From assembly GCA_947626365.1 (NCBI GenBank), contig CANQRW010000008.1, forward strand, positions 3,111-67,110: a stretch of 64,000 nucleotides of DNA, written 5' to 3'. The notes beneath the pieces were generated by a model. That model saw only the letters and a list, made by a program, of their open reading frames with translations. It was not told the DNA's origin and did not search any database. Made by a program: the position numbers and the translations under genes. The first letter of the stretch is position 1. The number at the start of each line of letters is the position of its first letter. Positions 8,949 through 31,848 of this stretch are shown here, one piece after another. Origin of the DNA: an uncultured Lachnospiraceae bacterium (GTDB lineage: Bacteria > Bacillota > Clostridia > Lachnospirales > Lachnospiraceae).

Positions 8949-9049
8949 CAAAACAACATATATTTATGATTGTATTCTCCTCCGTCTTATGTTATAGTGC
9001 CCTTGTAGCAGTCAATATACATAACTGACATAAGAAACGGAGATGTACC

Positions 9050-10444
9050 ATGCTTCAGTCACAGATAAAACGGCACGGTCCCGGCAGCAGGAATCTTTCC
9101 GGCCATGCCTCCTTTTCCGCTCGGAATCAGATTACAGAGGGAGTTATCTGGCAGCAGCTTCTTCTGTTTTTCTTTCCCATTTTATTCGGCACCTTTTTCC
9201 AGCAGCTCTACAACACGGTAGATGCTGTCATCGTCGGCCAGTTCGTGGGAAAAGAAGCGCTCGCTGCCGTAGGCGGGCCTACCGGCACCATCATCAATCT
9301 GCTGGTAGGCTTTTTCGTGGGTATCTCTTCCGGCGCTACGGTCATCATCTCTCAGTATTACGGCGCTGGAAAAGCGGATATGGTAGATTACGCGGTCCAT
9401 ACTTCCGCCGCGTTCTCACTGATCTGCGGCGCTGTCATCACCGCGGCCGGATTTCTGGCCGCCCCCACAGTCCTGCGCCTCATGGATACGCCTGCCGACA
9501 TTATGGACTACTCCATTACTTATATCCGCATTTTCTTTCTGGGAAGCATCTCCAACATGATCTACAATGTGGGCTCCGGCGTCCTGCGGGCCGTAGGCGA
9601 TTCCAGAAGGCCTCTGTATTTTCTTATCGCCTGCTGCGTCTCCAACATTGTGCTGGATCTTCTTTTCGTGGTAGTGATTCCCCTGGGCGTGGCCGGCGCT
9701 GCCCTGGCGACCATCCTGTCACAGACCATCAGCGCTTTTCTGGTAGTCTTCGTCCTGGTCCGCACCAGGGAAATGTACCGCCTGATTCTCACGCGTATCC
9801 GGCTGGATATGCGCATGCTTCACCGGATCATTCAGATCGGGCTTCCGGCAGGCCTTCAGTCCACCATGTACGGCCTGTCCAACCTGATCATACAGGCCAG
9901 CATCAACACTCTGGGCACCGACATTGTAGCCGCCTGGACCGCCTACTCCAAGGTGGACGTACTGTTCTGGATGATCCTCAACGCCTTCGGCATCTCCATC
10001 ACTACCTTCATCGGCCAGAATTTCGGAGCCGGCAAACTGGAGCGCGCCCGGAAAGGTCTGCGGATCTGCCTGGGCATGTCCGCGTGCGCCTGCCTCCTGC
10101 TTTCCGTCACCTACTACACGACTGCTCCCGTGCTTCTCAGGATATTCACTACCGACTCGGCCGTACTGGCCCAGGGCGTGCTTATCCTGCGCTTCATGGC
10201 GCCTACCTACATCACTTATGTGATCATCGAAATCTACTCAGGAGCCCTAAGAGGCGTAAGCGACACCTGGCGCCCCATGATCATCACTCTTTTGGGCATC
10301 TGTGTCCTGCGGGTAGTCTGGGTCTTTGCGGCCGTTCCGCTGCGGCGGGATATTACCACGGTCATATTCAGCTATCCCCTGACCTGGGTCGTGACATCCG
10401 CCGTGTTATTCATCTATCTGCACCGGTTCAGCAGATTGAGATAG
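9050..10444 (+). CDS. MATE family efflux transporter
   Basis: QQLYNTVDAVIVGQF, GDSRRPL and NIVLDLLFV MATE motifs with about 12 TM segments. Confidence 0.93.
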   Translation: MLQSQIKRHGPGSRNLSGHASFSARNQITEGVIWQQLLLFFFPILFGTFFQQLYNTVDAVIVGQFVGKEALAAVGGPTGTIINLLVGFFVGISSGATVIISQYYGAGKADMVDYAVHTSAAFSLICGAVITAAGFLAAPTVLRLMDTPADIMDYSITYIRIFFLGSISNMIYNVGSGVLRAVGDSRRPLYFLIACCVSNIVLDLLFVVVIPLGVAGAALATILSQTISAFLVVFVLVRTREMYRLILTRIRLDMRMLHRIIQIGLPAGLQSTMYGLSNLIIQASINTLGTDIVAAWTAYSKVDVLFWMILNAFGISITTFIGQNFGAGKLERARKGLRICLGMSACACLLLSVTYYTTAPVLLRIFTTDSAVLAQGVLILRFMAPTYITYVIIEIYSGALRGVSDTWRPMIITLLGICVLRVVWVFAAVPLRRDITTVIFSYPLTWVVTSAVLFIYLHRFSRLR

Positions 10445-10502
10445 CGGCGGAGGTGAAATTTACTTTTGCAAGTGAGTGGCCAAAATTTTTTTGAAAAAAC
10501 TG

Positions 10503-10531: not shown

Positions 10532-10544
10532 CCCTATTGTTCGT

Positions 10545-10628
10545 GCAGAAGTGGCGGAATTGGCAGACGCGCACGGTTCAGGTCCGTGTGGTAGTAATAC
10601 CTTGTGGGTTCGACTCCCATCTTCTGCA
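10545..10628 (+). tRNA. tRNA-Leu (anticodon CAG)
   Basis: Acceptor GCAGAAG/CTTCTGC, D-arm GGAATTGGCAGAC, anticodon arm CACGG-TTCAGGT-CCGTG, long variable arm and GGTTCGACTCC T-arm. CCA is not encoded. Confidence 0.96.
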
Positions 10629-10632
10629 GATG

Positions 10633-10741: not shown

Positions 10742-11536
10742 TTACTCGTCTTCCATCAGATCGTCCATCAGGATCTGGGTGCCGTTCTCGTCCACCTCCA
10801 CCGCCATCAGAAGAGTCCTGGCATCATCCACTTCATAACTGCAGGTGATCAGCGTGTACAGGGCCTTCAGGGGATACTCTACGGCAGCGGCGTAATCACA
10901 GCGGCGGATCATGGCCTGGGCATACCGGTCGAAGTCCTCCTGTCCCTTAAAATAAGGCTGCCGCAGCTCATAGCTGTTGGGAGACCAGAACGCCGCCACA
11001 GCCTTCAGGCGAATCTCCCGCTCCGGCGTATAGATGGAAAAATACTGGTGTTCCCTGAAAAAGTCCTCTTCCTTATAGCGCACCACATCCTTGAACATGG
11101 AACCGTCCTTCATCCGATGCCCGTAGATCACATTATGCCGGCTTCCAAACTTTCCGTCGCTCTCAAAATCCAGATAGATGGTCCCATAGACGCTCTCCCG
11201 GCCCTGGAAATCATGATGCAGGTAATAGTCATAGTCATTGCGGTATACAATGGGATAATCGATGTGAGTGCCGTCGATGCGGATCCAGCCGATTACCTCC
11301 GGATTCACCGCCGCCAGGGCTTCAAAATCAACCGGCGGCTCGTAGGCTTCCGTCTCCGGTTCCGGTTCTTCCGGAAGAATCACGGGCTTTACCGGTCCGA
11401 TCTCCGCCTCCGCCGCAGTCTCCTCTTCCGCCGCAGAGGGCTGTTCCACCCTCAGACGGTCCGCCAGAAGGACCGCGCCCGCTGCCAGAACCAACAGAAC
11501 CGCCGCCCCGGCAATGATTTTTCGTCTTCGCGTCAT
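10742..11536 (-). CDS. srtB: Class B sortase
   Basis: N-terminal anchor, NPEVIGWIRIDGTHIDYP, NDYDYYLHHD, IYGHRMKDGSMF and catalytic TLITC..R. Confidence 0.92.
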   Translation of the reverse strand: MTRRRKIIAGAAVLLVLAAGAVLLADRLRVEQPSAAEEETAAEAEIGPVKPVILPEEPEPETEAYEPPVDFEALAAVNPEVIGWIRIDGTHIDYPIVYRNDYDYYLHHDFQGRESVYGTIYLDFESDGKFGSRHNVIYGHRMKDGSMFKDVVRYKEEDFFREHQYFSIYTPEREIRLKAVAAFWSPNSYELRQPYFKGQEDFDRYAQAMIRRCDYAAAVEYPLKALYTLITCSYEVDDARTLLMAVEVDENGTQILMDDLMEDE

Positions 11537-11664: not shown

Positions 11665-11748
11665 GCGGGAGTGCTGGAATTGGCAGACAGGCAAGACTAA
11701 GGATCTTGTGGGTGTATGCTCGTGTGGGTTCAAGTCCCATCTCCCGCA
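11665..11748 (+). tRNA. tRNA-Leu (anticodon AAG)
   Basis: Acceptor GCGGGAG/CTCCCGC, anticodon arm CAAGA-CTAAGGA-TCTTG (AAG at 11699-11701), long variable arm and GGTTCAAGTCC T-arm. Confidence 0.93.
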
Positions 11749-11756
11749 TTTGAGGA

Positions 11757-11782
11757 AGAGAGCGCCGCTGGCGCTCTTTTTG
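11757..11782 (+). terminator. Rho-independent terminator
   Basis: AAGAGAGCGCCGCTGGCGCTCTTTTT hairpin after the tRNA. Confidence 0.8.
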
Positions 11783-11924
11783 TGCTGCATCAGTATGCAG
11801 GGGCTGTCCGCTCCTCTCAACTCTTTCTGGACATTCTTTCGCTGCCCTGCTATAATATTGCTATAATAGTAGAAACAAAATGTATTTTTCTGAATAAATC
11901 ACAGAAAGCAGTCTATCAGCAAAG

Positions 11925-12117
11925 GGGGGGACCGTATCCTTTCCGCGGACGGCACGATCACCGATCTGGAGAGTCTGCCTGATAACCTCAATGTGAACAA
12001 TATCTACAACAGGCACGCTTACGTCTGCATCATTGATACGAGATCCGCTCCATCGTGGGAGACAGCATGCCCATCATTATCCTCACCACCGTTCTGAAAG
12101 AATGCGCGGGCAAATAA
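11925..12117 (+). pseudogene. Possible fragment of a hybrid sensor kinase/response-regulator gene
   Basis: 12040-12117 translates as EIRSIVGDSMPIIILTTVLKECAGK*, resembling the receiver-domain IR...PIIILT segment. The upstream frame differs and there is no start. Confidence 0.35.
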
Positions 12118-12176
12118 AATGCTGTACTGACTTAAAATGACCTGGCTTCGAAAAATAAAATCAAAAAACGAAAGAG

Positions 12177-15100
12177 GTGTTGACTGTGAGCGAGATGAAT
12201 GAGAATCTGGAATATTTCAGGAACGTGATCCAAAACCCGGATGCGGATACCCTGCCGCTGCCTGACGCTCAGGCACGGGAAGAGGATTTCGACGAGGCGA
12301 TTCTGCGCCGCCCCCTGCCGGACGGCCTTAAGCAGGATCTTGAGGCTTTCGCGGGGCAAACGGGAATTGACCTGACCGCCCTGTATGAGGCGGCTGCCAT
12401 GCTCCTGCTGGCAAAATTCAGCGGCAGTTCAGACGCGCTCTGCGCCCTTGTCCGCGCGGAAAAGCGATTCCCCGTCTACTGCGATTTTCATAAAGAAACA
12501 TCATTTACCGGCTGCTGCCGCGCCGTAAATGCGCAGGCGGATGAGGCGGCGCGGCGCATCGACACTGTGGGTTTTGACGCGCTCTGCGCGGAGCTTGAGC
12601 TGTCTGCCATGCCGGTGCTGACGGAGGATGAAGGATTTTTCAATGATTTCGCGCTCACAGGTTCCGGACCGGCTACCGCGCTGTGCCTGCTTCTTGACGC
12701 GGGAAACGACAGCCTGGGCGCTAAGTACAACGCCGCGCGCTATGGCGAGGACATGATCGGCCGTCTGCTGGATTCGCTGACGGTGGTACTGCAGGCCATC
12801 GCGGCAGGCGAGGACGATACCGGCGCAATCGACATACTTTCCGACGCGCAGCGCGCCGAGTTGGACGGGTTCAACGAGACTGACGCGCCCATGGACGCCG
12901 CGGAGACGCTGATCGACCGTATTGACCGGGCGGCGGAGCGCTTCCCGGACAATATCGCCGTCGTTTATAAGGATAAGCGCTATACTTACCGGGCGTTTTC
13001 CGATCTTACGGACCGGATCGCCGCTTATCTGCGCCGAGCTGGGTTAGGCCGGGAGGACGTAGTCTCCATCCTGATCCCCCGGTGCGAATATATGCCCATC
13101 TGCGCCGTGGGCGTTCTGAAATCCGGCGCGGCTTATCAGCCCCTGGATCCCAGCTATCCGCCGGAACGGCTTGCCTTCATGATGCAGGACGCAGGCGCGA
13201 AGTTCCTCATTGCGGACAAAACGCTTCTTTCCCTTGTGCCGGAGTACGACGGTCCGGTGCTGACGCTGGACGAGATTCCCGCTCTTCCCGCCTGCGAAGA
13301 GATTCTTCCCCGCCCGAAGCCGGAGAATCTGTTCATCCTGCTCTACACCTCAGGCTCCACAGGCACACCCAAAGGCGTCATGCTGGAGCACGGCAATCTG
13401 GCGGCCTTCTGCTGCTGGTTCACAAAGTATTACGAGATGGACGAGAACAGCCGGGCGGCGGCCTACGCGTCCTTCGGCTTTGACGCCTGCATGATGGATA
13501 TGTACCCGACGCTGTCCAGCGGCGCGCAGCTGCACATCATCGCCGAGGACATCCGTCTGGATTTGATCGCCATTCATCAATATTTAACGGAAAACCAGGT
13601 TACGCATATCTTCATGACCACCCAGGTGGGCAGGCAGTACGCGGAACTGTTCCCGGACGGCGACTATCCCAAATATCTGTCCCTGGGCGGAGAGACCCTG
13701 GTACCCGTGCAGCCGCCCAGCTATCGGTTCTCTAACGCCTACGGCCCCACGGAGTGTACCATTTTTACCACGGTTTTCCCCGTGGACAGGCTCTACCGCA
13801 ATGTGCCCATCGGCAAACCCTTAAGCAATGTCAGGCTGTATATCCTTGACGCCCAGGGCCGGCGCGTCCCTGTAGGCGTGCCGGGAGAACTGTGCATCTC
13901 CGGGCCCCAGGTGTCCCGCGGATATCTGAACCGCCCGGAACAGACTGCGCAGGCCTTCGTGAAAAATCCCTTCTGCGGCGACCCGCGCTTTGCGCGGATG
14001 TACCGCACAGGCGACATCGTCCGCTTCCTGCCGGACGGCAGCGTGGAATTTATCGGGCGGCGGGATTCCCAGGTGAAGATCCGCGGCTTCCGCATTGAAC
14101 TGAGCGAGGTGGAAGGCGTTATCCGCCAGTTCGAGGGCATCAAGGACGCCACGGTGGTGGCCTACGACGAGGCCGGCGGCGGCAAGTATGTGGCGGCTTA
14201 CGTGGTGGCGGACGAGCCGGTAGATATAGAGGCGCTCAACCGCTTTATCCGGGAGACCAAGCCGCCCTATATGGTGCCTGCCGTCACCATGCAGATTGAC
14301 CGAATCCCCCTGAACCAGAACCAGAAGGTGAATAAGCGGGCTCTTCCCAAACCGGAACGGCACGCCGCGGCTTACGCGGCCCCTGCGACCGACGCGCAGA
14401 AGAAGATCTGCGAACTGCTGGCAGGCGTGGTCGGACATACGTCCTTTGGCGCGGACACAGACTTTTTTGAGGCGGGACTGACCTCCGTCGGCTCCATCAA
14501 ATTCCTCGTGCTGCTGACCAATGCCTTCGGCGCCGCCGTCTCCTCCAAGACCCTGCGGGAATACAATACGGCGCAGAAGCTGGAGGGCTATCTTAACACG
14601 GCGGAAAAGACCGCCGCCTCCGTCCGGCGCGACCGCTATCCTCTTACCCAGACGCAGATGGGCATCTATGTGGAATGTATGAAGCATCCCGAAGCTGTTT
14701 TCTATAACCTGCCAGGCGTTTTCCCGCTCAGCAGAGACACAGACATAGAGAAGCTGCGTGACGCCGTGGCCCGCGTCGTGGACGCCCACCCTGCTGTGAA
14801 ATGCGCCGTCCGCGCGGACGAGGAAGGCCAGGTATGCATGTTCCCCCAGGACGACCGCTCCGTGGACGTGGATGTCGTCCGGGGTACCGAGGAGGAGTAC
14901 GAGGCGTTCTTCAAGGGATTTGCCAGGCCCTTCGACTTTGAACACGGCCCCCTGTACCGTTTCGCCGTCTTCGTCACCGACGAGCACGTCTATCTTGTCC
15001 TGGACTTTCACCATATCATCAGCGACGGTTCCTCCATCGCGGTGTTCGCCCAGGAACTGGACCGGGCCCTGAGGGGCCAGGAGCTGTTAGGCGAACCCTA

Positions 15101-18100
15101 CTCTCAGTTTGATCTGGCGGCCGACGAGGAGAAGGCGCGGAAGGGCGAGTCATACCGAAGCGCCAAAAACTACTATGACGGCGTATTCAAAGGCGTTTCC
15201 GGCTGCACGACGCCGGAGCGGGACATTTACGAAGAGCAGGAACGCTGCGGTTTCGTCCGCGTCTTCAGCGACAGGCTTTCGCCGGAGCGCGTAGAAGCCT
15301 TCTGCCGCGAGAAACGGATCACGCCCAACGTGTTCTTCCTCTCGCTGATGAGCTTTGTCCTGGGCCGGTATGAACACACGGAAGAGGTCTGCCTGACGAC
15401 AATTTATAATGGCCGCAGCGACGGGCGGACCGCCGCTACCATGGGCATGCTTGTCAAGACGCTGCCGGTGTACGCGGAACCGACGGACAACCGCGGCGTC
15501 GCGGACTATTTAAACGCCATGCAGGAGCAGATCCTCTCCTCCATGAGCAACGATATCTATTCTTTTGCGGAAATCAGTCATGCTTACGGCATCCAGAGCG
15601 ACGTCATGTTCGTCTATCAGGGAGATGATTTCGTCGAATTCGACCTGGGCGGCCAGAAGACGGTGTTCGCCGAGGGCGTGCCCGACGTGGCCAAGTCCCA
15701 GCTGTCCATCGATCTGTTTGTGGAAAAGGGCAGATACCGCTTTGAGTTTGAGTACCGCGCGGACATGTACAGCCCCGCGTTTATCGACCGGCTGACCCAC
15801 GTGCTGGAGGAGGCTGCCATCAGCTTCCTCACTGCCAGAACCCTGGGGGATGTGAACCTTACGCCGGCGGATGAGCTGGAGCGCATCGAGGGCTTTAACG
15901 ACACGGACTATCCCGTGGAGCTGGTCAGCGTGAACCGGCTGTTCGAGGGACAGGCCGCCGCCCACCCTGACCGGCTGGCGCTGATCGCGGCAGGGGAAAA
16001 ATTGACTTATGACGCCCTGAACCGGGCGGCGAACCGGGTGGCCCGCGCGCTGATCGCCCTTGGCGTAGGGAAGGACCAGATCATCGGCCTTATCCTTGAA
16101 CGTGACAAATATGATTATATTGTAAATCTGGGCATCCTGAAGGCGGGCGCGGCGTTTCTGCCCATGACGCCCTCCTATCCTGACGAGCGCATCGAATACT
16201 GCCTCACCGACGCCCAGAGCCCCTTCGTCATTACCACAGAGTCCATCCGCACCCAGCGAAGCGCCCTGTGGGAAGGCAAGCCTTACCGGGTATTGACTGT
16301 CGAGACGCTGCTTGCGGCGGAGGAGGAAGAAAATCCTGACCGGACGATTGATGTGGACGCCCTGGCCTACTGTCTGTATACCTCCGGCTCCACGGGCAAG
16401 CCCAAGGGCGTTATGATTGAACACCGGAACCTGTGCAATTTCGTGAACGCCAACCCGCGCAATATCGAGATTACTAACTACACGAACCACGCTTCCGTGT
16501 CCCTGGCGCTGGCGGCCATCACCTTCGACGTCTCGGTGATGGAGGAATTTATCCCCCTGTGCAACGGCCTGACGGTCTGCATGGCCACGGAGGAAGAAAT
16601 CCACAACCCGGTGGCGCTTGCCAAACTCATGGAAGAAAACAGGGTAGATTTCATGACCTGCACGCCCTCATTTTTATCCAATGTGATCGACCTGGAACAG
16701 ATGCGCGGCGCTATCGCGTATCTGAAGGCCTTCGATTTCGGAGCGGAGGCGTTCCCGCCGGCGCTCTACGGCAAGATCCGCGCCATCAACCCGACGGCCT
16801 TTATCGCCAACGGCTACGGCCCGACGGAGTGTACCGTCAGCTGCTCCACGAAATTCTTAAACGACACAGACAAGATCACCATCGGCGTGCCGCTGTCCAA
16901 CGTTAAGTTCTATGTGATGGATTCCGGAAAACATGTGCTGCCTGTGGGCTTTAAGGGCGAACTGGTCATCTGCGGCGCCGGCGTAGGCCGGGGCTACGTA
17001 AATCTGCCCGACAAGACCCGGGAGGCCTTCTTCCATATGAAGGGCCTGAAGGCGTACCACAGCGGCGACCTGGCCAGATGGACGGAAAAGGGAGAGATCG
17101 ATTTCCTGGGCCGCCTGGACAATCAGGTGAAGCTGCGGGGCCTGCGGGTGGAGCTGGATGAGATTGAAAGCGCCATCAACGCTTACGAGGGCGTCCGCAT
17201 GAGCAAGGTGATCGTGCGCAATAACGGCAGCGAAGACTATCTGGCAGGCTACTTCACCGCCGACAGAACCGTCGATCTGGCTGATCTGACGGCGCGGCTG
17301 CGGGAGACTCTGACGGCCTACATGGTGCCCGGCGCCCTGATGCAGCTGGACGAAATGCCCCTCACCCCCAATGGCAAGACTGACAAAAAGCTCCTGCCCG
17401 ACATCCAGTACGCCGCGGCGCAGCGGGAGTATGTGGCGCCTTCCAGCGAGCTGGAGGCGGAGTTCTGCGAACAGTTTGCCAAAATCCTCGGGCTGGAGCG
17501 GGTCGGAGCCACCGACGACTTCTTTGAGATCGGCGGCACGTCTCTCAGCGCCACCCGGATCGCCATGTACGCGCTGAACAAGGGTTATCCCATTGCCTAC
17601 AAGGATGTATTCGCCTGCCCCACCCCCGCGATGCTGGCCGGGCTGGCAGCCAAGGGCCGCGGCGGCAGTCAGCAGGCAGAGGACACGAATGTGAACGCAT
17701 ACGATCACGCGGCTGCCGGCGGACGGCCTGAGAAGAACGCTGAGACACAGGCAGACAGCGTAGGCAGACACGGCTATGCGGCTGTCAGCGGGCGGCTTAG
17801 GAAGAATGCTGAGACGCAGGCAGACGGCGCGGACACCTATGATTACACAGCCATCAACGAGCTGCTTGAGAAGAACGCGGAAACGCGGCTTGCGGAGGTT
17901 CTGCCCGGCCGCCTGGGCAATATCCTGCTGACCGGCGCGACAGGTTTTCTCGGCATCCATGTGCTGCGGGAGTTCCTGAACAACTATACAGGCAAGGTGT
18001 ACTGTCTTATGCGCAGGGGCCGCCACGCGGCCTGTGAAAAACGCCTGATGTCCATGCTCGACTACTACTTCAGCGATCCCTGCGAGGAGGCCTTCCGGGA

Positions 18101-19025
18101 CCGCATTGTCTGCGTGGAAGGCGACATTACCGACCGCGAGGCTGTGGCAGCCCTTGCGGACCTGGACTGTTCCGTAGTCATCAACTGCGCGGCCTGCGTC
18201 AAGCACTTCGTCAGCGACGACTCGCTGGACCGTATCAATGTAGGCGGCGTTGAAAACCTTGTGGCAATGTGCAGGGCGTCCGGAAAGCGTTTTGTACAGA
18301 TTTCCACTACGTCTGTCGCAGGCGAGGGGGATGAGCGCACGTCCCTTGCTGACAAACGGATGGGCGAGAACGAGCTGTACTTCGGCCAGATCTTGGACAA
18401 CGCCTATGTCCATTCCAAATTCCTCGCGGAGCGTACAGTACTTGAAGCGTGCGCGCAGGGCGGTCTGGACGGACGGATCCTGCGGGTCGGCAACCTGATG
18501 AGCCGCCGCTCCGACGGAGAGTTCCAGATCAATTTCGTCACAAACGGCTTCATGCGCACCCTCAAGGCCTATAAGGCCCTGGGACAGTTCCCCATGGGCG
18601 CAATGCACGTTCCGGCGGAGTTTTCGCCCATCGACTCCACGGCGGCAGCGGTTCTGACCCTGGCGGCCTGCGAGGGCGGCTTCACCGTCTTCCATGCGTA
18701 CAACAGCCATTCCCTCTATATGTCCGACGTGATCTACGCTATGCGCGCCTACGGCTTCGCCATCGATATTGTTCCGGATGAAGTCTTTGCCGCGACACTG
18801 CGTGAAGCCTCCGAACATGCGGAACTCAGCGGAACGGTACTGGGCCTGATCGCTTATGACAGCGGCGACGGTTCGGCGCGATACGAGATTCCCGCGGTCA
18901 ACGACTTTACCGCCAGGGCGCTTTACCGTCTGAATTACAAATGGCCCATCACGGACGACGCCTACCTGGAAAATGCCATCCGCGCCCTGGATACGCTGGG
19001 ATTTTTCGATAATCCGAGGGTATGA
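12177..19025 (+). CDS. Two-module NRPS with terminal thioester reductase: (partial C)-A-T-C-A-T-R
   Basis: A1 YTSGSTGTPKG, T1 FFEAGLTS, C HHIISDG, A2 YTSGSTGKPKG, T2 FFEIGGTSL, R TGATGFLG and YVHSK. The true start could be a few codons downstream. Confidence 0.95.
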   Translation: MLTVSEMNENLEYFRNVIQNPDADTLPLPDAQAREEDFDEAILRRPLPDGLKQDLEAFAGQTGIDLTALYEAAAMLLLAKFSGSSDALCALVRAEKRFPVYCDFHKETSFTGCCRAVNAQADEAARRIDTVGFDALCAELELSAMPVLTEDEGFFNDFALTGSGPATALCLLLDAGNDSLGAKYNAARYGEDMIGRLLDSLTVVLQAIAAGEDDTGAIDILSDAQRAELDGFNETDAPMDAAETLIDRIDRAAERFPDNIAVVYKDKRYTYRAFSDLTDRIAAYLRRAGLGREDVVSILIPRCEYMPICAVGVLKSGAAYQPLDPSYPPERLAFMMQDAGAKFLIADKTLLSLVPEYDGPVLTLDEIPALPACEEILPRPKPENLFILLYTSGSTGTPKGVMLEHGNLAAFCCWFTKYYEMDENSRAAAYASFGFDACMMDMYPTLSSGAQLHIIAEDIRLDLIAIHQYLTENQVTHIFMTTQVGRQYAELFPDGDYPKYLSLGGETLVPVQPPSYRFSNAYGPTECTIFTTVFPVDRLYRNVPIGKPLSNVRLYILDAQGRRVPVGVPGELCISGPQVSRGYLNRPEQTAQAFVKNPFCGDPRFARMYRTGDIVRFLPDGSVEFIGRRDSQVKIRGFRIELSEVEGVIRQFEGIKDATVVAYDEAGGGKYVAAYVVADEPVDIEALNRFIRETKPPYMVPAVTMQIDRIPLNQNQKVNKRALPKPERHAAAYAAPATDAQKKICELLAGVVGHTSFGADTDFFEAGLTSVGSIKFLVLLTNAFGAAVSSKTLREYNTAQKLEGYLNTAEKTAASVRRDRYPLTQTQMGIYVECMKHPEAVFYNLPGVFPLSRDTDIEKLRDAVARVVDAHPAVKCAVRADEEGQVCMFPQDDRSVDVDVVRGTEEEYEAFFKGFARPFDFEHGPLYRFAVFVTDEHVYLVLDFHHIISDGSSIAVFAQELDRALRGQELLGEPYSQFDLAADEEKARKGESYRSAKNYYDGVFKGVSGCTTPERDIYEEQERCGFVRVFSDRLSPERVEAFCREKRITPNVFFLSLMSFVLGRYEHTEEVCLTTIYNGRSDGRTAATMGMLVKTLPVYAEPTDNRGVADYLNAMQEQILSSMSNDIYSFAEISHAYGIQSDVMFVYQGDDFVEFDLGGQKTVFAEGVPDVAKSQLSIDLFVEKGRYRFEFEYRADMYSPAFIDRLTHVLEEAAISFLTARTLGDVNLTPADELERIEGFNDTDYPVELVSVNRLFEGQAAAHPDRLALIAAGEKLTYDALNRAANRVARALIALGVGKDQIIGLILERDKYDYIVNLGILKAGAAFLPMTPSYPDERIEYCLTDAQSPFVITTESIRTQRSALWEGKPYRVLTVETLLAAEEEENPDRTIDVDALAYCLYTSGSTGKPKGVMIEHRNLCNFVNANPRNIEITNYTNHASVSLALAAITFDVSVMEEFIPLCNGLTVCMATEEEIHNPVALAKLMEENRVDFMTCTPSFLSNVIDLEQMRGAIAYLKAFDFGAEAFPPALYGKIRAINPTAFIANGYGPTECTVSCSTKFLNDTDKITIGVPLSNVKFYVMDSGKHVLPVGFKGELVICGAGVGRGYVNLPDKTREAFFHMKGLKAYHSGDLARWTEKGEIDFLGRLDNQVKLRGLRVELDEIESAINAYEGVRMSKVIVRNNGSEDYLAGYFTADRTVDLADLTARLRETLTAYMVPGALMQLDEMPLTPNGKTDKKLLPDIQYAAAQREYVAPSSELEAEFCEQFAKILGLERVGATDDFFEIGGTSLSATRIAMYALNKGYPIAYKDVFACPTPAMLAGLAAKGRGGSQQAEDTNVNAYDHAAAGGRPEKNAETQADSVGRHGYAAVSGRLRKNAETQADGADTYDYTAINELLEKNAETRLAEVLPGRLGNILLTGATGFLGIHVLREFLNNYTGKVYCLMRRGRHAACEKRLMSMLDYYFSDPCEEAFRDRIVCVEGDITDREAVAALADLDCSVVINCAACVKHFVSDDSLDRINVGGVENLVAMCRASGKRFVQISTTSVAGEGDERTSLADKRMGENELYFGQILDNAYVHSKFLAERTVLEACAQGGLDGRILRVGNLMSRRSDGEFQINFVTNGFMRTLKAYKALGQFPMGAMHVPAEFSPIDSTAAAVLTLAACEGGFTVFHAYNSHSLYMSDVIYAMRAYGFAIDIVPDEVFAATLREASEHAELSGTVLGLIAYDSGDGSARYEIPAVNDFTARALYRLNYKWPITDDAYLENAIRALDTLGFFDNPRV

Positions 19026-20809
19026 ATATGCTGAAGAGAAATGAAAAACTGATCAAAACCAAGCTGTGGCAGTATCTGCTGCCCAGCGTAATGCTCACGG
19101 CGTCGCTGCAGATCGGCAATGTGGTGGACATCATGCTTGTGGGCAACATATTAGGCACGGACGCCATGTCCGCCGTCCAGATCGGCATGACGGCGGACAA
19201 CATCATGGAACTGCCGGGATATGTGCTGGCTGTCGGCGGCAGCATCGCGGCAGGCATGCTGCTGGGCCGCCGGCAGCGGGAGCAGGCGGACCGCGTGTTT
19301 TCCACCACATTTCTGGTAAGCGCGGCCTGCGGCGTGGTGTTTGCGCTGCTCTCGGTCTTTTCCCCGCTTTTTGCGCGGCTGCTCACCGGCGGCGGTCCGC
19401 TGGAAGGAGACGTAAGCGCCTTTGTGCGGGTGACGCTCTTAGGCGCGCCCGTCATCGGCGTCGTCCTGCAGTTTATCAACTACGTGGCCGTGGACAACTT
19501 CCCGAATATTGCCTCCGCCTACGTCATTGCCTCCAACGTCATCAACCTTACCCTGGACTATCTGCTACTTAAGTTTACAACCCTGGGTACGGCGGGAGCG
19601 GCGCTGTCCACCATATTGGGATACGCCCTGGCATCCGTTGTGCTTATCCCGTATCTGCGCTCGTCCAAGCGCATGCTGCATTTTATCGCGCCGAAGAAGG
19701 AGCTGCCGGCGTCGCTTAAGCTGGCCCTTGGCATGGGGCTGCCTACGCTGATGTACATGATTTTCGACACGGTGCGCAGTCTTGCCCTCAATACGATGAT
19801 CATGCGCGCCATGGGCAGCGACGCCATGGCGGTGTTTACCATCTGCGACAACATTGTGCTGATCGTAGAGATGCTTGCCGGCGGCATCATCGGCACTCTC
19901 TCATCCATCGGCGGCGTGATCTACGGCGAAAAGGACTACTTCGGAGTGCGCGTCCTTGCCAGAAACGTGCTTTGCTACAGCTATGGGGTACTGGCGGTAT
20001 TCATAGCGCTGCTGGCAATATTTACGCGGCAGGCGGCAGGCTTTTTCGGTATCACAGACGATCCCCTGCTTGGCATGGCGGTATCGTCCCTGCGCATTTT
20101 TCTCTTCAGCCTGCCCTTCTATCTGTTCAACAGTTTTCTGATGAACTATTACCAGAGTACGGAGAAGGGAAATCTGGCCTCGCTGGTAACATCCCTTCGC
20201 AGCTGCGTGGCCGTGCTGCCCCTGGCGTTTCTGCTGGTTTTCCTGGCCGGTCCGGGGGAGGCCGGGCGGCTGCGCGCGCTGATGATCGCGCTGATCCTTG
20301 GCGAGGCGGTGACCGTACTTGCCGTCACGGTCTTTCGCCGGTGCCGGTATCACAGCCGGGATCTTTTCCTGCTGCCCGCTGCCCAGGACGAACATGTCCT
20401 GGACCTTTCCATCGATCCGGTCATTGAGGAAACAGCCCGCGTGCCCAGCGAAATCACCGCGTTCTGCGAAAACTGCGGCGTCGATCCGCTGAAAGCGAAC
20501 CTGATCGCCATCGCCGCGGAGGAAATGGCAGTCAATATCATTCAGTACGGCGGCCGGCACGTCCACTCCATCGACATCAACCTGAGCATCACGCCGGACT
20601 CGCTGATCCTGCGTACCCGTGACAATGGTATCCCCTTCGATCCCACTCATTACACGGCGGATTCGGATGCGTTCGATATACACGGAATCGAACTGGTCAA
20701 GCGCATATCGGACAAGGTGCAGTATATGCGTGTCCTCGATCTGAACAACACGACTGTGGAGGTCTCGCTGAAGCGGCAGTTGAAACAGCAGGAGGCCGAC
20801 CATGGTTGA
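19022..20809 (+). CDS. MATE transporter fused to a C-terminal HATPase_c (RsbW/anti-sigma-like) domain
   Basis: MATE motifs over about 450 aa, then AAEEMAVNIIQYG (N-box), LRTRDNGIPFDP (G1) and HGIELVKR (G2). Overlaps the NRPS stop. Confidence 0.85.
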   Translation: MNMLKRNEKLIKTKLWQYLLPSVMLTASLQIGNVVDIMLVGNILGTDAMSAVQIGMTADNIMELPGYVLAVGGSIAAGMLLGRRQREQADRVFSTTFLVSAACGVVFALLSVFSPLFARLLTGGGPLEGDVSAFVRVTLLGAPVIGVVLQFINYVAVDNFPNIASAYVIASNVINLTLDYLLLKFTTLGTAGAALSTILGYALASVVLIPYLRSSKRMLHFIAPKKELPASLKLALGMGLPTLMYMIFDTVRSLALNTMIMRAMGSDAMAVFTICDNIVLIVEMLAGGIIGTLSSIGGVIYGEKDYFGVRVLARNVLCYSYGVLAVFIALLAIFTRQAAGFFGITDDPLLGMAVSSLRIFLFSLPFYLFNSFLMNYYQSTEKGNLASLVTSLRSCVAVLPLAFLLVFLAGPGEAGRLRALMIALILGEAVTVLAVTVFRRCRYHSRDLFLLPAAQDEHVLDLSIDPVIEETARVPSEITAFCENCGVDPLKANLIAIAAEEMAVNIIQYGGRHVHSIDINLSITPDSLILRTRDNGIPFDPTHYTADSDAFDIHGIELVKRISDKVQYMRVLDLNNTTVEVSLKRQLKQQEADHG

Positions 20810-21566
20810 GTACGCGCTTTCGGACGTTTCATCCCTTCCCGATCCTTTGACGAACGCCTCTGCCCTCACAGGCATTCCAGCCTGGCGTCAGGCTTATATC
20901 CTGCGCTATCGGCGCCCGGAGGACCGCAGGCGCAGCCTTGGCGTCTGGCGGCTGATGGAAAATATGCTGGCCGCGCGCGGCTTTCAGGCGCAGGACGTCA
21001 TCGCGGACAGCCGCGGCAAACTCTGCTGCGACGGTATTTTTTTCAGCCTGTCCCACGCAGGCGACCTGGCCCTGTGCGCCGTGAGCGGCGTGCCGGTAGG
21101 CTGCGACATCGAGCTGGTCAAAGACGCGCCCTTAGAGATCGCGCCGCGCATCTTTTGCCCGGGCGAACGCGCATATCTGCGCAATGCCCGGGACGACAAA
21201 GAGGCCCAGAGGCGTTTTTTCACGCTCTGGACCCTCAAAGAAAGCTATATGAAAATGACCGGCGAAGGCCTCGGCCTCGCGCCGGAACGGCTGGAAATCC
21301 GCATGGCCGCCTCTGGCCCCGCACCGGAACAGCCGGAGATCCGCATGGCCGCACCTGGCCCCGCGCCGGAATGGCCGGAAATCCGCATGGCCGCCTCTGG
21401 CCCCGCGCCGGAACAGCTTGGAACGCAGACATCTGCCCTCACCCTGCTCCGTGACGGCGTAACGCAGTCATGCACGCTCTTTCACACCGCTTACGGCGAG
21501 TATGAACTCTCCCTGTGTGTATCTAATCTTCACCCGCAATTCGCGCTTCGTCAGCCCTCTGCGTAG
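20802..21566 (+). CDS. Sfp-type 4'-phosphopantetheinyl transferase
   Basis: FSLSHAG, PVGCDIE and FFTLWTLKESYMKMTGEGL motifs. Overlaps the upstream gene. Confidence 0.92.
   Translation: MVEYALSDVSSLPDPLTNASALTGIPAWRQAYILRYRRPEDRRRSLGVWRLMENMLAARGFQAQDVIADSRGKLCCDGIFFSLSHAGDLALCAVSGVPVGCDIELVKDAPLEIAPRIFCPGERAYLRNARDDKEAQRRFFTLWTLKESYMKMTGEGLGLAPERLEIRMAASGPAPEQPEIRMAAPGPAPEWPEIRMAASGPAPEQLGTQTSALTLLRDGVTQSCTLFHTAYGEYELSLCVSNLHPQFALRQPSA
21282..21419 (+). repeat. In-frame 42-bp tandem repeat x3 in the PPTase
   Basis: CCGGAACGGCTGGAAATCCGCATGGCCGCCTCTGGCCCCGCA-like units encode PExxEIRMAAxGPA three times. Confidence 0.9.
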
Positions 21567-22588
21567 TCTCCCCGCTCCCCCACCAGCTGAAATCCCGCCG
21601 ATGCCACTCTCCGCTCCAGGCAGCCGCGGCACTCCGCCGCCTCTTCGCCGGTACAGATCTTATTGTCGTACAGATCATACTGTTTACGATTCTTCACCGG
21701 GGACAGATTGGGCATGACCACGTTGGCTCCCATGGCAAGGCCTTTCTCCCTTCCTCTGGGATCCAGCGTACCCAGAGCCGTGGTCGCCGGGAGAAGCACC
21801 CTGGGGAACAGAATTCGGAGAACCGCCAGAAGGAACAGAGTCAGTTCCACACTGCCTGCCGGCTGATCCGCGAACCTGGTCTCATGGTGCGGAATAAAGG
21901 GCCCAATCCCAATCATCTGCGGATTCAGTTCCTGAAGAAATACCAAGTCCTCCGCCAGGGTTTCCCTGGTCTGTCCCGGGCTTCCTACCATGAATCCCGC
22001 GCCCACCTGAAAACCAAGGGATTTCAGATCGTACAGGCACTGCTTCCGCGCCGCCAGGCTCATGGTCTCCGGATGAAGAGACCGGTAATGGGCGTCGTCG
22101 GCCGTCTCATGGCGCAGAAGATACCGGTCGGCTCCCGCCTCCCGGAACCGCCGGTAGGTCTCATAGGATTTCTCACCGATGGACAGGGTCAGGGCGCAGT
22201 CCGGATACCGGCCTTTGATCTTCTCTATGATCTCAACCATCCGGTCGTCGGTATAATAGGGATCCTCTCCTCCCTGGAGGACAAAGGTGCGGAACCCCAG
22301 CTCATAGCCGTTGTCGCAGCAGTCCAGAATCTCCTCCGCGGTCAGCCGGTAGCGGACCGCGTTTTTATTGTCCCGGCGGATCCCGCAGTAATAACAGTTA
22401 TTCTTACAGTAATTGGTAAACTCGATCAGGCCCCTGGTGTAGACCTTGTCGCCGTAATACATCCGGCGAAGCTTAAGGGCCTCCGCCCCAAGCCGCTCCG
22501 TAGCTTCCGCATCGCCCGTATATGCCAACAGTTCCACCGCCTCAGAAAAAGAGAGACGGTGGAACTGAATCAGTTTGTCTATGACCAT
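21551..22588 (-). CDS. hydE: [FeFe]-hydrogenase maturase, radical SAM
   Basis: RGLIEFTNYCKNNCYYCG (CxxxCxxC), YLLRHET, GIGPFIPHHET, GANVVMPNLSP and C-terminal Cx7Cx2C. Confidence 0.9.
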   Translation of the reverse strand: MVIDKLIQFHRLSFSEAVELLAYTGDAEATERLGAEALKLRRMYYGDKVYTRGLIEFTNYCKNNCYYCGIRRDNKNAVRYRLTAEEILDCCDNGYELGFRTFVLQGGEDPYYTDDRMVEIIEKIKGRYPDCALTLSIGEKSYETYRRFREAGADRYLLRHETADDAHYRSLHPETMSLAARKQCLYDLKSLGFQVGAGFMVGSPGQTRETLAEDLVFLQELNPQMIGIGPFIPHHETRFADQPAGSVELTLFLLAVLRILFPRVLLPATTALGTLDPRGREKGLAMGANVVMPNLSPVKNRKQYDLYDNKICTGEEAAECRGCLERRVASAGFQLVGERGDYAEG

Positions 22589-26127: not shown

Positions 26128-27534
26128 TTACGAATTCTGTCCGCCACTCTTTAACACCGGCCTGCCGAAATATTTCAGGGCAATGGGCAGGGCCACCAGA
26201 AATGTAAGGGCATCCGCCAGGGGACCTGCCGCCTGGACGCCCAGAAGGCCGATGAGCCTGGGCAGGATCAGCAGGATCGGTATGTAGAAGAACAGCTGCC
26301 GGCTGAACACCAGGATACTGCTGTTAAGAGGCTGGCCGATTACCTGCAGAAGGGTGCTGGCGGCCGCCATAAAGGTGGCGAACGGCATGCCGAAACAGAT
26401 CAGCCGCAGGGCCAGCGCCCCGATGCGGATGACCTCCGGATCGTCGCGGAAAATTCCGATCAGCTGGGGCGCAAAGATGTATCCGATGGCGCCAAAGAAG
26501 CACATGCTCAGGATTCCAATCTTCACTGTCACCCAGAACGCTTCGCCCACCCGCTTCTTGTTGCCTGCCCCATGGGCATAACCGATGACCGGCTGGGCCC
26601 CCTGGCCGATTCCGTTGGACACCGAGTTGGACAGATACAGAATCCGGCCGGCCACGCTCATGGCCGCGATAGCCGCGTCGCCCCAGCCTCCTGCTACCCA
26701 GTTCAGCACCACGTTGGACAGCATGTTGGTGCCGTGGCGGCACAGGCTGGGAAATCCGGTGATAAACAGTTTTCGGTATTCCATGCCGGTTCTGGCCATA
26801 TTGCGTATGGAAATCCGAACCTGAGTAATGCCCCTCAGATAATAGCTGAGCAGAATGCCCCAGGCAATGATCTGGCTTAAAGCGGTAGCTATGGCCGCGC
26901 CCTTGATCCCAAGATGAAAGACAAAGATGAACAGCGGATCCAGAATCATATTAAGCACGCCGCCGCTGACCTGACCGATCATGCACTGGCGGCTCAGGCC
27001 CTCTCCTCTCAGGCACTGGGCCAGCGTCAGGGTGCTGGCCGCAAAAGGCCCGCCGATAAAAATGTATCTGCCATAATCCATGGCGTAGGGCAGAATCGTG
27101 TCCGTGGCCCCCAGAAGGCGCATCAGGGAGCTGCCGGTGATAAATCCCACCAAAGCTACGGCTATGCCGAAGGAAAAGCCCAGGAAAAAGCCGGTGCTGA
27201 CCACCGTATCGGCCTCCTTCTGCTTCTTTGCCCCCAGAAACTGAGACAGCAGGCTGGAAGCGCCGGTTCCCACCAGAAATCCCAGGGCGTTTAATACCAT
27301 GGGAATGGAAAATACCACGCCTACCGCCGCCGTGGCGCTGGTTCCCAGGCGGCCTACAAAAAAGGTATCCGCCAGATTATAAATACTGGAAATCAAAAGC
27401 GTCATTATCGCCGGAAGACCTAAAGACATCACCAGCGGCCCTACCGGAGCCGTAGTCATTCGGATATAATGTTTCTGACTGTCAACATCAGATGCTTTCA
27501 TACATACCTCCCGGCACAGACGCAGTACGCTCAA
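26128..27534 (-). CDS. MATE family efflux transporter
   Basis: SIYNLADTFFV, LRGEG and NMILDPLFIF motifs. Confidence 0.92.
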   Translation of the reverse strand: MSVLRLCREVCMKASDVDSQKHYIRMTTAPVGPLVMSLGLPAIMTLLISSIYNLADTFFVGRLGTSATAAVGVVFSIPMVLNALGFLVGTGASSLLSQFLGAKKQKEADTVVSTGFFLGFSFGIAVALVGFITGSSLMRLLGATDTILPYAMDYGRYIFIGGPFAASTLTLAQCLRGEGLSRQCMIGQVSGGVLNMILDPLFIFVFHLGIKGAAIATALSQIIAWGILLSYYLRGITQVRISIRNMARTGMEYRKLFITGFPSLCRHGTNMLSNVVLNWVAGGWGDAAIAAMSVAGRILYLSNSVSNGIGQGAQPVIGYAHGAGNKKRVGEAFWVTVKIGILSMCFFGAIGYIFAPQLIGIFRDDPEVIRIGALALRLICFGMPFATFMAAASTLLQVIGQPLNSSILVFSRQLFFYIPILLILPRLIGLLGVQAAGPLADALTFLVALPIALKYFGRPVLKSGGQNS

Positions 27535-27576
27535 TCACTGCGTCAGCGCGCGTCCGTGCCTCCATATATTTCTTCT

Positions 27577-29541
27577 TTAGTCCAGTTCCGTCATGCCGGT
27601 GTAAAGCTCATAGTACCGGCCTTTCATGGCAAGCAGCTCGTCATGGTCGCCCCGCTCAATGATCTGCCCCTTCTCCAGCACCATGATGGCGTTGGCGTTG
27701 CGGACCGTGGACAGACGGTGAGCGATGACGAAGGTGGTGCGGTCCTTCATCAGCCGGTCCATACCGTGTTCGATGTGCCGCTCCGTCCTGGTATCCACGG
27801 AGCTGGTGGCCTCGTCCAGGATCAGCACCGGCGCCTTAGAGATGGCGGCCCTGGCAATGTTGAGAAGCTGCCTCTGACCCTGGCTTAAGTTGGCTCCGTC
27901 CCCTTTCAGCATAGTGTCATAGCCCTTGGGCAGACGCATGATAAAGGAGTGGGCGGAGGCCGTCTTGGCCGCCTGGATTACCTCCTCGTCGGTGGCGTCC
28001 AGCCTGCCGTAGCGGATATTCTCCCGGACGGTCCCTGTAAACAGGTGGGTATCCTGAAGAACCATGGCGATATTCTGCCGCAGGTTATCCATCTTCAGAT
28101 GGCGGATATCCACGCCGTCAATGGTAATGGAACCGGACTGGATATCATAAAACCGGTTGATCAGGTTGGTGATGGTAGTCTTGCCCGCACCGGTGGAGCC
28201 TACGAAAGCAATCTTCTGGCCCGGCTTGGCGTAAAGGCTGATATTCTTAAGGATTACCTTATCCGGATTGTATCCGAAGGTTACGTCGTCCAGCACCACA
28301 TGACCCTGCATGGGATCGAGGACCACCGCGTCCGGATCGTCCGCAGGCTCCGGCTGCTCATCCATCACCGCGAAGACACGCTCCGCGCCGGCGATGGCCG
28401 AGAACACCTGGCTCACCTGCATGGAAATCTCATTGACCGGGCGGCTGAACTGTCTGGAGAAATTCAAAAATACCGTCAGGCCGCCTACGTCAAAGTTCTG
28501 GAACACGCACAGCAGGCCGCCTACGCAGGCCGTCAGGGAATAATTCACCTGGCTTAAGCAGTTCATGACCGGCCCCATGATTCCGCCGAAGAACTGGGCC
28601 CGGATCTGATTTTCCCGCAGATCCTTATTTAATATGGAAAACTCCTCTTTGGCAATGTCCTCATGGCAGAATACCTTCACTACCTTCTGGCCGCTGACCG
28701 TTTCCTCCACATAGCCGTTGACCGCGCCCAGAGACGCCTGGAGGGCGGAGAAATATTTCCGGCTCCGCTTGGCCACGGCTCCGCCTGCCTTCAGCATGAC
28801 CGGGATCATGACCAGAGTGACCACCGTCAGGTAGATATTGGTGTAGATCATCAGCACCAGGGTCCCCACGATGCTCAGGGCGCCGGAGAACAGCTGCACC
28901 AGGGTTCCGGACAGCATCTGTCCCAGCACATCCACATCATTGGTAAAACGGCTCATCAGATCGCCGTTATTGTTGTTGTCGTAAAACCGCACCGGCAGCT
29001 CCTGCATCTTGGCGAACAGGTCGTTTCGGATCCGCTGCAGGGCGTTCTGGGCGATGGTCAGCATGGTTTTCGCCTGAATGTAGTTGGCCGCCACTCCGGC
29101 CGCGTAGACCGCCGCCATCACAAACAGGGCCCCCAGAAGTCCCCTGGCGTCGCCCCGGCTGCCGTCCGCAGGCGCGATATAGGTGTTGATAATGGGCCGC
29201 AGCATATAGGAGCCGGCCAGGTTGGTCACAGTGCTGACCAGCACACACAGAAAGGCCGTCATCATCTTCAGCTTATCTTCTTCCAGATAACCGAAGATTC
29301 TTTTGATGGTTTTCCCCGTATTCTTGGGCTTCACCTTGGGCAGGTTCTGGGCGCCTCTCCGGCCCGGGCCTCCCGGTCCCCTGCCGGGACCTCCCATTCC
29401 CATAGAGGACGGCGCGTGCTTTCCGTAGCGGCGCTTCAGGCTTTCCACGCGGGCGGCGTTGTCGGTTCCGGTCACGGCTCTCGTTCCGACCGCCCCACGG
29501 CTCTCCTTTTTCCTGTTCATTTCGTTCATTCCGCTCATCAC
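27577..29541 (-). CDS. ABC exporter, fused TMD-NBD (consensus-site half)
   Basis: GSTGAGKT, LSQGQRQ and LILDEATS motifs. Confidence 0.93.
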   Translation of the reverse strand: MMSGMNEMNRKKESRGAVGTRAVTGTDNAARVESLKRRYGKHAPSSMGMGGPGRGPGGPGRRGAQNLPKVKPKNTGKTIKRIFGYLEEDKLKMMTAFLCVLVSTVTNLAGSYMLRPIINTYIAPADGSRGDARGLLGALFVMAAVYAAGVAANYIQAKTMLTIAQNALQRIRNDLFAKMQELPVRFYDNNNNGDLMSRFTNDVDVLGQMLSGTLVQLFSGALSIVGTLVLMIYTNIYLTVVTLVMIPVMLKAGGAVAKRSRKYFSALQASLGAVNGYVEETVSGQKVVKVFCHEDIAKEEFSILNKDLRENQIRAQFFGGIMGPVMNCLSQVNYSLTACVGGLLCVFQNFDVGGLTVFLNFSRQFSRPVNEISMQVSQVFSAIAGAERVFAVMDEQPEPADDPDAVVLDPMQGHVVLDDVTFGYNPDKVILKNISLYAKPGQKIAFVGSTGAGKTTITNLINRFYDIQSGSITIDGVDIRHLKMDNLRQNIAMVLQDTHLFTGTVRENIRYGRLDATDEEVIQAAKTASAHSFIMRLPKGYDTMLKGDGANLSQGQRQLLNIARAAISKAPVLILDEATSSVDTRTERHIEHGMDRLMKDRTTFVIAHRLSTVRNANAIMVLEKGQIIERGDHDELLAMKGRYYELYTGMTELD

Positions 29542-31277: not shown

Positions 31278-31332
31278 ACCTTATTACCTCGCTTTCCTTT
31301 CTGTCATATGATCCAAGACCGGTTTCCCCGGT

Positions 31333-31848
31333 TCATCCGGTCTGCCCTGGGGCAGGTCCGGAACCTGAACCCGCGTCCCCCCGGCACCTGTCCGGGTCGA
31401 TGGAATTCAGATTCTCCAGGATCCGGTCAAACAAGACCAGCATGATCTCGAAGTCTTCCTTCGCAAATCCCTGAAACATGGTGGTCTCGACCTCCTGAAA
31501 GATCCGGCGGCTCTCCTTCACCACCTGTTCGCCCTTCTCCGTGAGAAGAATCTGATTGTACCGTTTATCGGACTCATCCACCGCCCGGCAGATATAGCCG
31601 CCCTTCTCCAGCTTGCTCAAAGTCACCGCTATGGTAGCCGCCGTCACATCATTTAACTGGGCTAATTCCGTCTGGGAAATATTGGGATGATCTGAGATGC
31701 ACATGAGAATCCGGTGCTGGCTCCGGTAAACACCTGTCGAATTCAGGCACCTCTCCAGCACCGACCGGTGGCAGCGGCCCACTTTCATATACTTGTGAAG
31801 CATCTTCTCCTCTGCCGTCGCTGATTCCCGTTTTCTGCCTTCGTCCAC
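31333..31848 (-). CDS. MarR family transcriptional regulator
   Basis: QTELAQ..VTAATIAVTLSKLEKGGYICR..DKR wHTH. First gene of the efflux operon. Confidence 0.9.
   Translation of the reverse strand: MDEGRKRESATAEEKMLHKYMKVGRCHRSVLERCLNSTGVYRSQHRILMCISDHPNISQTELAQLNDVTAATIAVTLSKLEKGGYICRAVDESDKRYNQILLTEKGEQVVKESRRIFQEVETTMFQGFAKEDFEIMLVLFDRILENLNSIDPDRCRGDAGSGSGPAPGQTG

Follow-up and report, generated by a model that had tools for sequence, protein, structure and literature searches.

Small gene clusters that are built around a reductase-terminated nonribosomal peptide synthetase (NRPS) are said to occur in gut Clostridia, where Guo et al. 2017 (Cell 168:517) reportedly described NRPS clusters for dipeptide aldehydes and pyrazinones; the ruminopeptin (rup) cluster of Ruminococcus bromii is likewise said to have been described by Schneider & Balskus 2018. 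Here we analyze a cluster of this type from an uncultured Lachnospiraceae bacterium. It occupies positions 12,177 to 21,566 of a 64,000-nucleotide stretch of contig CANQRW010000008.1 (assembly GCA_947626365.1), which we refer to as the window, and consists of genes for an NRPS, a MATE pump and a 4'-phosphopantetheinyl transferase (PPTase). The host genome is a metagenome-assembled genome (MAG) that is 98.5% complete and comprises 144 contigs. The operon is real, intact and accessory, and its sequence indicates that it is probably functional; its chemistry, substrates, export and regulation we infer. At a probability of about 0.72, we read it as a self-contained, horizontally acquired operon making a free-amine dipeptide aldehyde that would go on to form a dihydropyrazinone or pyrazinone.

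In Staphylococcus aureus, the NRPS AusA releases a dipeptide aldehyde reductively, after which the aldehyde cyclizes spontaneously to a pyrazinone, and relatives from gut commensals have been reported to make protease-inhibiting dipeptide aldehydes or pyrazinones (PMC8210680, PMC12327764). Similar to AusAB (PznAB), the window encodes an A-T-C-A-T-R NRPS (A, adenylation; T, carrier; C, condensation; R, reductase) together with a dedicated Sfp-type PPTase, which is matched by the AusB model. AusA is the best NCBIfam match of the window NRPS, the R domain is homologous to that of AusA (4F6C) with the catalytic triad aligned, and in both systems a free N-terminus would permit cyclization to a pyrazinone. 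In contrast to AusAB, the window has other pocket codes, an exporter in which MATE is fused to a HATPase_c_2 domain, and a host belonging to the anaerobic gut Clostridia. The window NRPS is an enzyme that would work like AusA, and it is not an AusA orthologue.

By description, the window also resembles the aldehyde clusters of gut Clostridia and rup, since all are small clusters around a reductase-terminated NRPS; an exporter and a PPTase accompany the NRPS in this small gut Clostridia cluster as well. Unlike these, the window NRPS belongs to a separate clade known so far from rabbit-gut MAGs, shares at most 62% identity with the relatives found outside that clade, which come from gut or rumen MAGs and a few isolates, and has no N-acylating starter C domain. 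A third point of comparison is the NRPS of Methanobrevibacter ruminantium (mru0066-0071), for which Leahy et al. 2010 (PMC2812497) remarked on flanking genes for serine phosphatases, for an anti-sigma-factor antagonist and for a MatE pump. Besides that paper, our search for literature linking STAS, MATE and NRPS returned nothing relevant. The parts list of the M. ruminantium M1 loci (Mru_0068/Mru_0351) equals that seen across the family of the window NRPS. The window shares with them an adjacent MATE gene whose RsbW-like HATPase_c_2 domain is fused or adjacent, however, it lacks the STAS and phosphatase genes.

The three genes and their predicted chemistry

The NRPS gene (12177..19025, + strand) is a single intact open reading frame (ORF) of 2282 amino acids. 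Its true start may be GTG 12177, GTG 12186 (giving the 2279-amino-acid form on record) or ATG 12192, which aligns with the relatives. An earlier note on this DNA had read the domain order as A-T-C-A-T-R; Pfam, NCBIfam and motif inspection confirmed these domains with all core motifs and refined the order to C*-A1-T1-C-A2-T2-R, in which C* is an N-terminal condensation remnant. Residues 1-245 (12177..12911) match positions 190-275 only of the Pfam Condensation profile (E 4e-8) and lack HHxxxDG. Because this segment is a C-terminal lobe without the catalytic motif, the enzyme is described as having no working starter C domain. The remnant is conserved across the NRPS relatives. On the same strand follow A1 (AMP-binding, residues 250-717; 12924..14345), T1 (PP-binding, residues 743-806; 14403..14594, with its serine in FFEAGLTS), the working C domain (residues 818-1215; 14628..15821, with HHIISDG at 15009-15029), A2 (residues ~1250-1741; 15924..17399), T2 (PP-binding around residues 1782-1792; 17490..17650, with its serine in FFEIGGTS at 17520-17552) and the thioester reductase R (NAD_binding_4/Epimerase, residues 1916-2158; 17922..19022). 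SGSTG(T/K)PKG, FD..., NxYGPTE, Y(R/H)(T/S)GD, GRxDxQVK(I/L)RG and the A10 lysine are intact in A1 and A2, as are the carrier serines (GLTS in T1, GGTS in T2), the C-domain HHIISDG and, in the R domain, the GATGFLG Rossmann motif, ISTTSV with the catalytic Thr, and YVHSK. Between T2 and R lies a linker expansion (17730..17894, + strand) with three KNAET(Q/R) repeats; about 50 amino acids of it are absent from the relatives, whose linker is short, and are unique to the window genome. Antisense ORFs of 364-653 amino acids inside the NRPS gene (13821-15014, 15510-16604 and 16857-18818, - strand) are most likely artefacts of a GC-rich coding strand (GC at third codon positions 0.76) and not genes.

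The transporter listed in the earlier note is present (19022..20809, + strand) and can be described more exactly: by Pfam and NCBIfam, residues 1-445 form a MATE exporter, to which an RsbW/SpoIIAB-like HATPase_c_2 tail is fused at residues 470-578; the C-terminal extension is a 150-amino-acid HATPase_c_2 domain. The PPTase (20802..21566, + strand) was also identified as had been claimed. It is of the Sfp type (PF01648, 59 bits; HetI and AusB models), and the Mg-binding motifs of such enzymes, GxDxE and W/FxxKE, are present as GCDIE and WTLKESYMK. Translational overlap of the three genes holds as well: the NRPS stop and the MATE start share ATGA at 19022-19025, and 8 nt (20802-20809) belong to both the MATE and the PPTase gene. 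The cluster converges, as noted before, on hydE (21551..22588, - strand; TIGR03956, 573 bits), whose 3' end overlaps that of the PPTase gene by 16 nt. A repeat scan and comparison with relatives revealed an in-frame tandem repeat inside the PPTase gene (42 bp x 3.6; 21268..21417, + strand). It amounts to a 42-amino-acid insertion just after WTLKESYMK, in which PEIRMAA(S/P)GPAPE(Q/W) occurs three times, and is found only in the window genome, being missing from all six close relatives. The repeat could be a real variable number tandem repeat or an assembly artefact. This insertion and the T2-R linker expansion may both sit where insertions are tolerable, which for the PPTase is a prediction only.

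Regarding product release, the best solved homologue of the R domain is the M. ruminantium Mru_0351 carrier-reductase (PCP-R) structure (6VTJ, E 1e-73), followed by AusA-R (4F6C, E 1.5e-40) and, more distantly, MxaA-R (E 1e-20). The catalytic Thr, Tyr and Lys align with both 4F6C and 6VTJ. Non-redox R* domains, which carry out Dieckmann cyclization, lack the catalytic Tyr; the window R domain possesses it. We predict that the Sfp-type PPTase would turn both carrier domains into their holo form, that A1 would load a probably hydrophobic amino acid onto T1, and that A2, with an uncompensated Asp in its pocket, would load a second amino acid onto T2. The single working C domain would join the two, and the terminal R domain, of the short-chain dehydrogenase/reductase type, would reduce the dipeptidyl thioester with NAD(P)H and so set free a dipeptide aldehyde. 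Since the N-terminal C domain is a dead remnant, the N-terminus would stay a free amine, so that the aldehyde could cyclize on itself to a dihydropyrazinone, and to a pyrazinone if oxidized. The MATE pump would then export the product. Reductive release of a dipeptide aldehyde, as previously proposed, is consistent with the domain order, the intact redox triad and the lack of a working starter C domain.

To describe the substrates, Stachelhaus positions were read off the core motifs, and the register was checked by HMMER alignment of the A2 segment to DltA structures. The A1 code is DAMFSGAIF-K (residues 436, 437, 440, 479, 502, 504, 521, 529 and 530). Because Met, Phe, Ile and Phe line this pocket, a medium-to-large hydrophobic substrate is suggested, and A1 probably selects a hydrophobic amino acid. 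The A2 code is DVMTDGGVS-K (residues 1451, 1452, 1455, 1494, 1520, 1522, 1546, 1554 and 1555); Stachelhaus position 299 is occupied by Asp, and positions 301 and 322 by Gly. The A2 segment aligns best with DltA-type pockets and has its skeleton in common with the DltA code DLMTLCTVA. As a source of substrate assignment, this alignment confirmed the pocket positions and named no substrate.

We then compared the pockets of 52 aligned proteins, almost all of them bimodular relatives. The A1 code is nearly invariant (DAMFSG[AGV][IV][FL]). The A2 code of the Lachnospiraceae clade is mostly DVMKDGSVS, where Lys278 is paired with Asp299 in the manner typical of the family, and sometimes DVLADGGVS, while in the rabbit clade it is DV/IM(T/S)DGGVS, position 278 being Thr or Ser and position 322 Gly. 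A Lys able to neutralize Asp299 is thus gone from the rabbit clade. The A2 pocket of the window would be roomier, with its Asp uncompensated, and could select a cationic residue, which we offer as a lead and not as a finding. Taken further, this would mean that the rabbit-gut clade changed the specificity for the second residue, that A2 takes Arg, Lys or Orn, and that the cluster makes a dipeptide aldehyde with a free amine and a basic, leupeptin-like warhead at its C-terminus; we hold this extension to be unlikely. If true, such a product would target trypsin-like or cathepsin-B-type proteases. To our knowledge, there is no report of a leupeptin-like basic dipeptide aldehyde from gut Clostridia. 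The specific product was left unnamed in the earlier note, and this still stands.

Relatives and the missing switch genes

The window NRPS has thousands of homologues. Its nearest relatives are from rabbit-gut ('Lapin') MAGs (74-87% identity), followed by a large Lachnospiraceae/Ruminococcus/Dorea clade (55-64%); the nearest named relatives are ~60% identical. The relatives belong to gut and rumen Lachnospiraceae, Ruminococcus and Oscillospiraceae, and those from rumen Bacteroidales are ~38% identical. A maximum-likelihood tree placed the window NRPS inside the rabbit-gut clade as sister to loci L001 and L002. Pairwise dN/dS against four relatives was 0.09-0.14 for the NRPS, 0.10-0.25 for the MATE::HATPase and 0.17-0.24 for the PPTase, which indicates purifying selection on all three genes, although a pairwise value does not isolate the window's own branch. 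In some relatives, tblastn matches are split into two frames (the NRPS near residues 450-570 in L016 and L018, and the PPTase at residue 59 in L001), which may reflect frameshifts caused by errors in MAG assembly, or pseudogenization. In a methanogenic archaeon, Methanimicrococcus sp. (locus L047, JAJDHP010000034.1), the gene for a related NRPS (39%) is directly followed by that for a MATE::HATPase_c_2 fusion, STAS, PP2C and PPTase genes are nearby, and the entire cassette looks as if it had passed from bacteria to archaea. The host genome itself contains a second reductase-terminated NRPS fragment (C82:6360-11258, - strand; 1633 amino acids), which runs off the contig end and is 38-41% identical to the window NRPS. 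In congeners (L084 and L085), C-A-T-R genes like this fragment have a STAS gene upstream.

In the archaeon and in all Firmicute relatives, the gene that directly follows the NRPS encodes the MATE::HATPase_c_2 fusion, and the motifs of the fusion's tail are kept across the family, namely AAEEMxVN, RDNGIPFDPT and a degenerate, single-Gly HGIE(L/V)VK at the place of the G2 box. Further, a small STAS gene (…EYI(C/S)SSGLR…; PF01740) adjoins the NRPS in at least 60 of 79 related loci. It stands immediately upstream of the NRPS in the Firmicute loci inspected and is present in the nearest relatives L018, L001, L002 and L010. About 55 related loci also have a sensor PP2C(SpoIIE)-HATPase_c_2 gene, the PP2C usually being fused to a kinase domain. 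In a very abundant trimodular relative of 2994 amino acids, the gene order is MatE, NRPS, STAS, HATPase_c_2, PPTase.

These switch genes, which are normal for the NRPS family and had been overlooked in the earlier reading, are absent from the window. No cluster-encoded STAS gene was found in the window or on contig C8, the other STAS genes of the genome being ~33% identical, and tblastn found no decayed STAS gene in the NRPS leader. A cluster-encoded PP2C (SpoIIE) is absent from the window, with only a distant copy elsewhere in the genome, on contig C29. There (C29:4153-7974, + strand), a stand-alone STAS gene is followed by a 957-amino-acid protein with multiple transmembrane segments, a sensor-PP2C-HATPase_c_2 with an intact GGLGIF G2 box; both share ~33% identity with their cluster-type counterparts in relatives. 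Weaker STAS matches occur on contigs C10 and C15. The orphan pump tail might find its partner in trans in the C29 pair, and the sequences are consistent with control of the tail having been either lost or supplied in trans. Three other members of the rabbit clade (L003, L004 and L016) also lack STAS, and the STAS-less form therefore persists in several species.

The pump tail is of the same RsbW/SpoIIAB type of HATPase_c_2 as the kinases of the RsbW-RsbV-RsbU and SpoIIAB-SpoIIAA-SpoIIE modules of Bacillus, and in relatives of the window the genes for the corresponding STAS and PP2C partners stand beside that for the pump. In contrast to the Bacillus modules, no sigma factor was present in any cluster examined, the HATPase domain is fused to a transporter, the G2 box is degenerate family-wide (single-Gly HGIELVK), and the window tail has no cognate STAS. 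The window cluster adds one more ordinary member to a family that hundreds of gut genomes are already known to contain. What sets it apart is mainly the missing STAS and phosphatase switch genes, and it adds a PPTase encoded in cis to the fused pump.

Probable horizontal acquisition and competing explanations

The cluster had been called accessory, and comparison with other genomes bears this out. An NRPS orthologue is present in 1 of 24 genomes of the same GTDB genus (G004, on the contig of locus L001; 87% identity). The GC content of the cluster is 60.0% compared with 51.8% for the genome, 8 points above the genome mean, and only 0.24% of same-size genome windows reach such a value. The NRPS, MATE::HATPase and PPTase genes travel as one unit among relatives; the six closest loci keep this unit and none of the genes that flank it in the window. 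Taken together, the occurrence in one congener, the extreme GC content and the unrelated flanks point to horizontal acquisition. In low-GC hosts (L001, L018 and L004) the cluster is 7-12 points richer in GC than its flanks, compared with 2 points (L016) or 6-8 points (L002 and L003) in higher-GC hosts, a pattern within the rabbit-gut clade that suggests spread from a higher-GC donor. The hydE neighborhoods of same-genus genomes showed no synteny with the window and no clean insertion junction, and because of this lack of synteny an empty site is not demonstrable.

The earlier note had placed the cluster right after a tRNA, and the first possible NRPS start does follow 428 nt after tRNA-Leu(AAG) (A34; 11665-11748; ARAGORN, Rfam 49.9 bits). 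This position, the atypical composition of the cluster and its patchy occurrence within the genus would suit a genomic island integrated at the tRNA gene by a site-specific recombinase. However, no integrase or transposase was found in the flanks, and the 3' end of the tRNA gene does not recur as an att-like direct repeat at the distal border of the cluster. Nor is the tRNA conserved: among ten related loci scanned for tRNAs, eight have none, and the other two have unrelated tRNAs downstream of the cluster. The island explanation is thereby largely refuted and we rate it as highly improbable, the upstream tRNA looking incidental.

Several observations weigh against our reading of the cluster as a producer of a dipeptide aldehyde. 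The match of the NRPS to AusA, at 1050 bits, falls far short of the NF047350 equivalog cut-off of 2500. The codes DAMFSGAIFK and DVMTDGGVSK had no match in the literature searched. The STAS and PP2C genes are missing, and regulation, perhaps also activity, may therefore differ; the PPTase carries its 42-amino-acid insertion, which may affect it. Finally, sequence does not reveal if the reduction by an NRPS R domain involves two electrons or four, the determinants of electron count not being established, and MxaA and Mtb-R, which have the same fold, release alcohols (PMC8024701). The R domain could accordingly yield a dipeptide alcohol with neither a reactive warhead nor a route to a pyrazinone, and MxaA-R is a detectable homologue. 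By score, however, the nearest characterized homologue is the aldehyde-forming AusA-R and not an alcohol former, and characterized gut relatives are reported to yield aldehydes or pyrazinones. We regard the alcohol as an unlikely product and a minor rival, sequence giving no prediction of how far the reduction goes.

Slightly less improbable, and still unlikely, is that the cluster makes little or no product, having come without its STAS/PP2C control as a silent or decaying passenger with a PPTase disrupted by repeats. The switch genes are indeed absent although they are usual in the family and occur in L018, L001 and L002, which are the nearest to the window, the PPTase insertion and the NRPS linker expansion are unique to the window genome, and some relatives have apparent frameshifts in cluster genes. 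Against this, all three frames are intact and every catalytic motif is kept, dN/dS is low (0.09-0.25, pairwise and thus not specific to the window branch), other members of the clade lack STAS as well, and a strong promoter-like site is predicted upstream (11828..11856, + strand; TGGACA-17-TATAAT with an extended TG, 11/12 consensus matches). We therefore retain a working operon for a free-amine dipeptide aldehyde as the preferred reading.

Genomic surroundings and significance

The predicted promoter would leave a leader of ~320 nt ahead of the NRPS. The sequence from 11749 to 12176 is unique and resembles no related locus. A riboswitch or T-box in this leader was considered as a possible hint to the substrate and rejected, as Rfam gave no match besides tRNAs and the leader is not conserved. 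The flanks consist of housekeeping genes, including addAB, two tRNA-Leu genes, a class B sortase gene, hydE and infC. Named relatives of the window HydE come from Lachnospiraceae, Pelethocola and Frisingicoccus, and the host is accordingly taken to be a Lachnospiraceae-like member of the gut Clostridia. The second tRNA, tRNA-Leu(CAG), is at 10544-10629. Between it and addB lies a 483-amino-acid ORF (9043-10494, + strand) with no Pfam or NCBIfam match, and the class B sortase gene (10742-11536, - strand) adjoins this ORF. At 26128-31848 (- strand), a second MATE gene, an ABC exporter gene pair (fused transmembrane and nucleotide-binding domains) and a MarR regulator gene share one strand; this looks like a separate efflux locus ~5 kb past the cluster.

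Reductase-terminated NRPSs of gut anaerobes make reactive peptide aldehydes able to inhibit host or microbial proteases, and most of their products have yet to be named, as the clusters are difficult to activate. The window cluster leaves the existing understanding of the family unchanged. It adds a divergent rabbit-gut clade with unmatched pocket codes. As a natural minimal cassette of an NRPS, a pump and its own PPTase, free of STAS and PP2C genes, it is therefore a convenient expression construct, and it provides a natural comparison for the role of the conserved, sigma-less partner-switch genes of this family.

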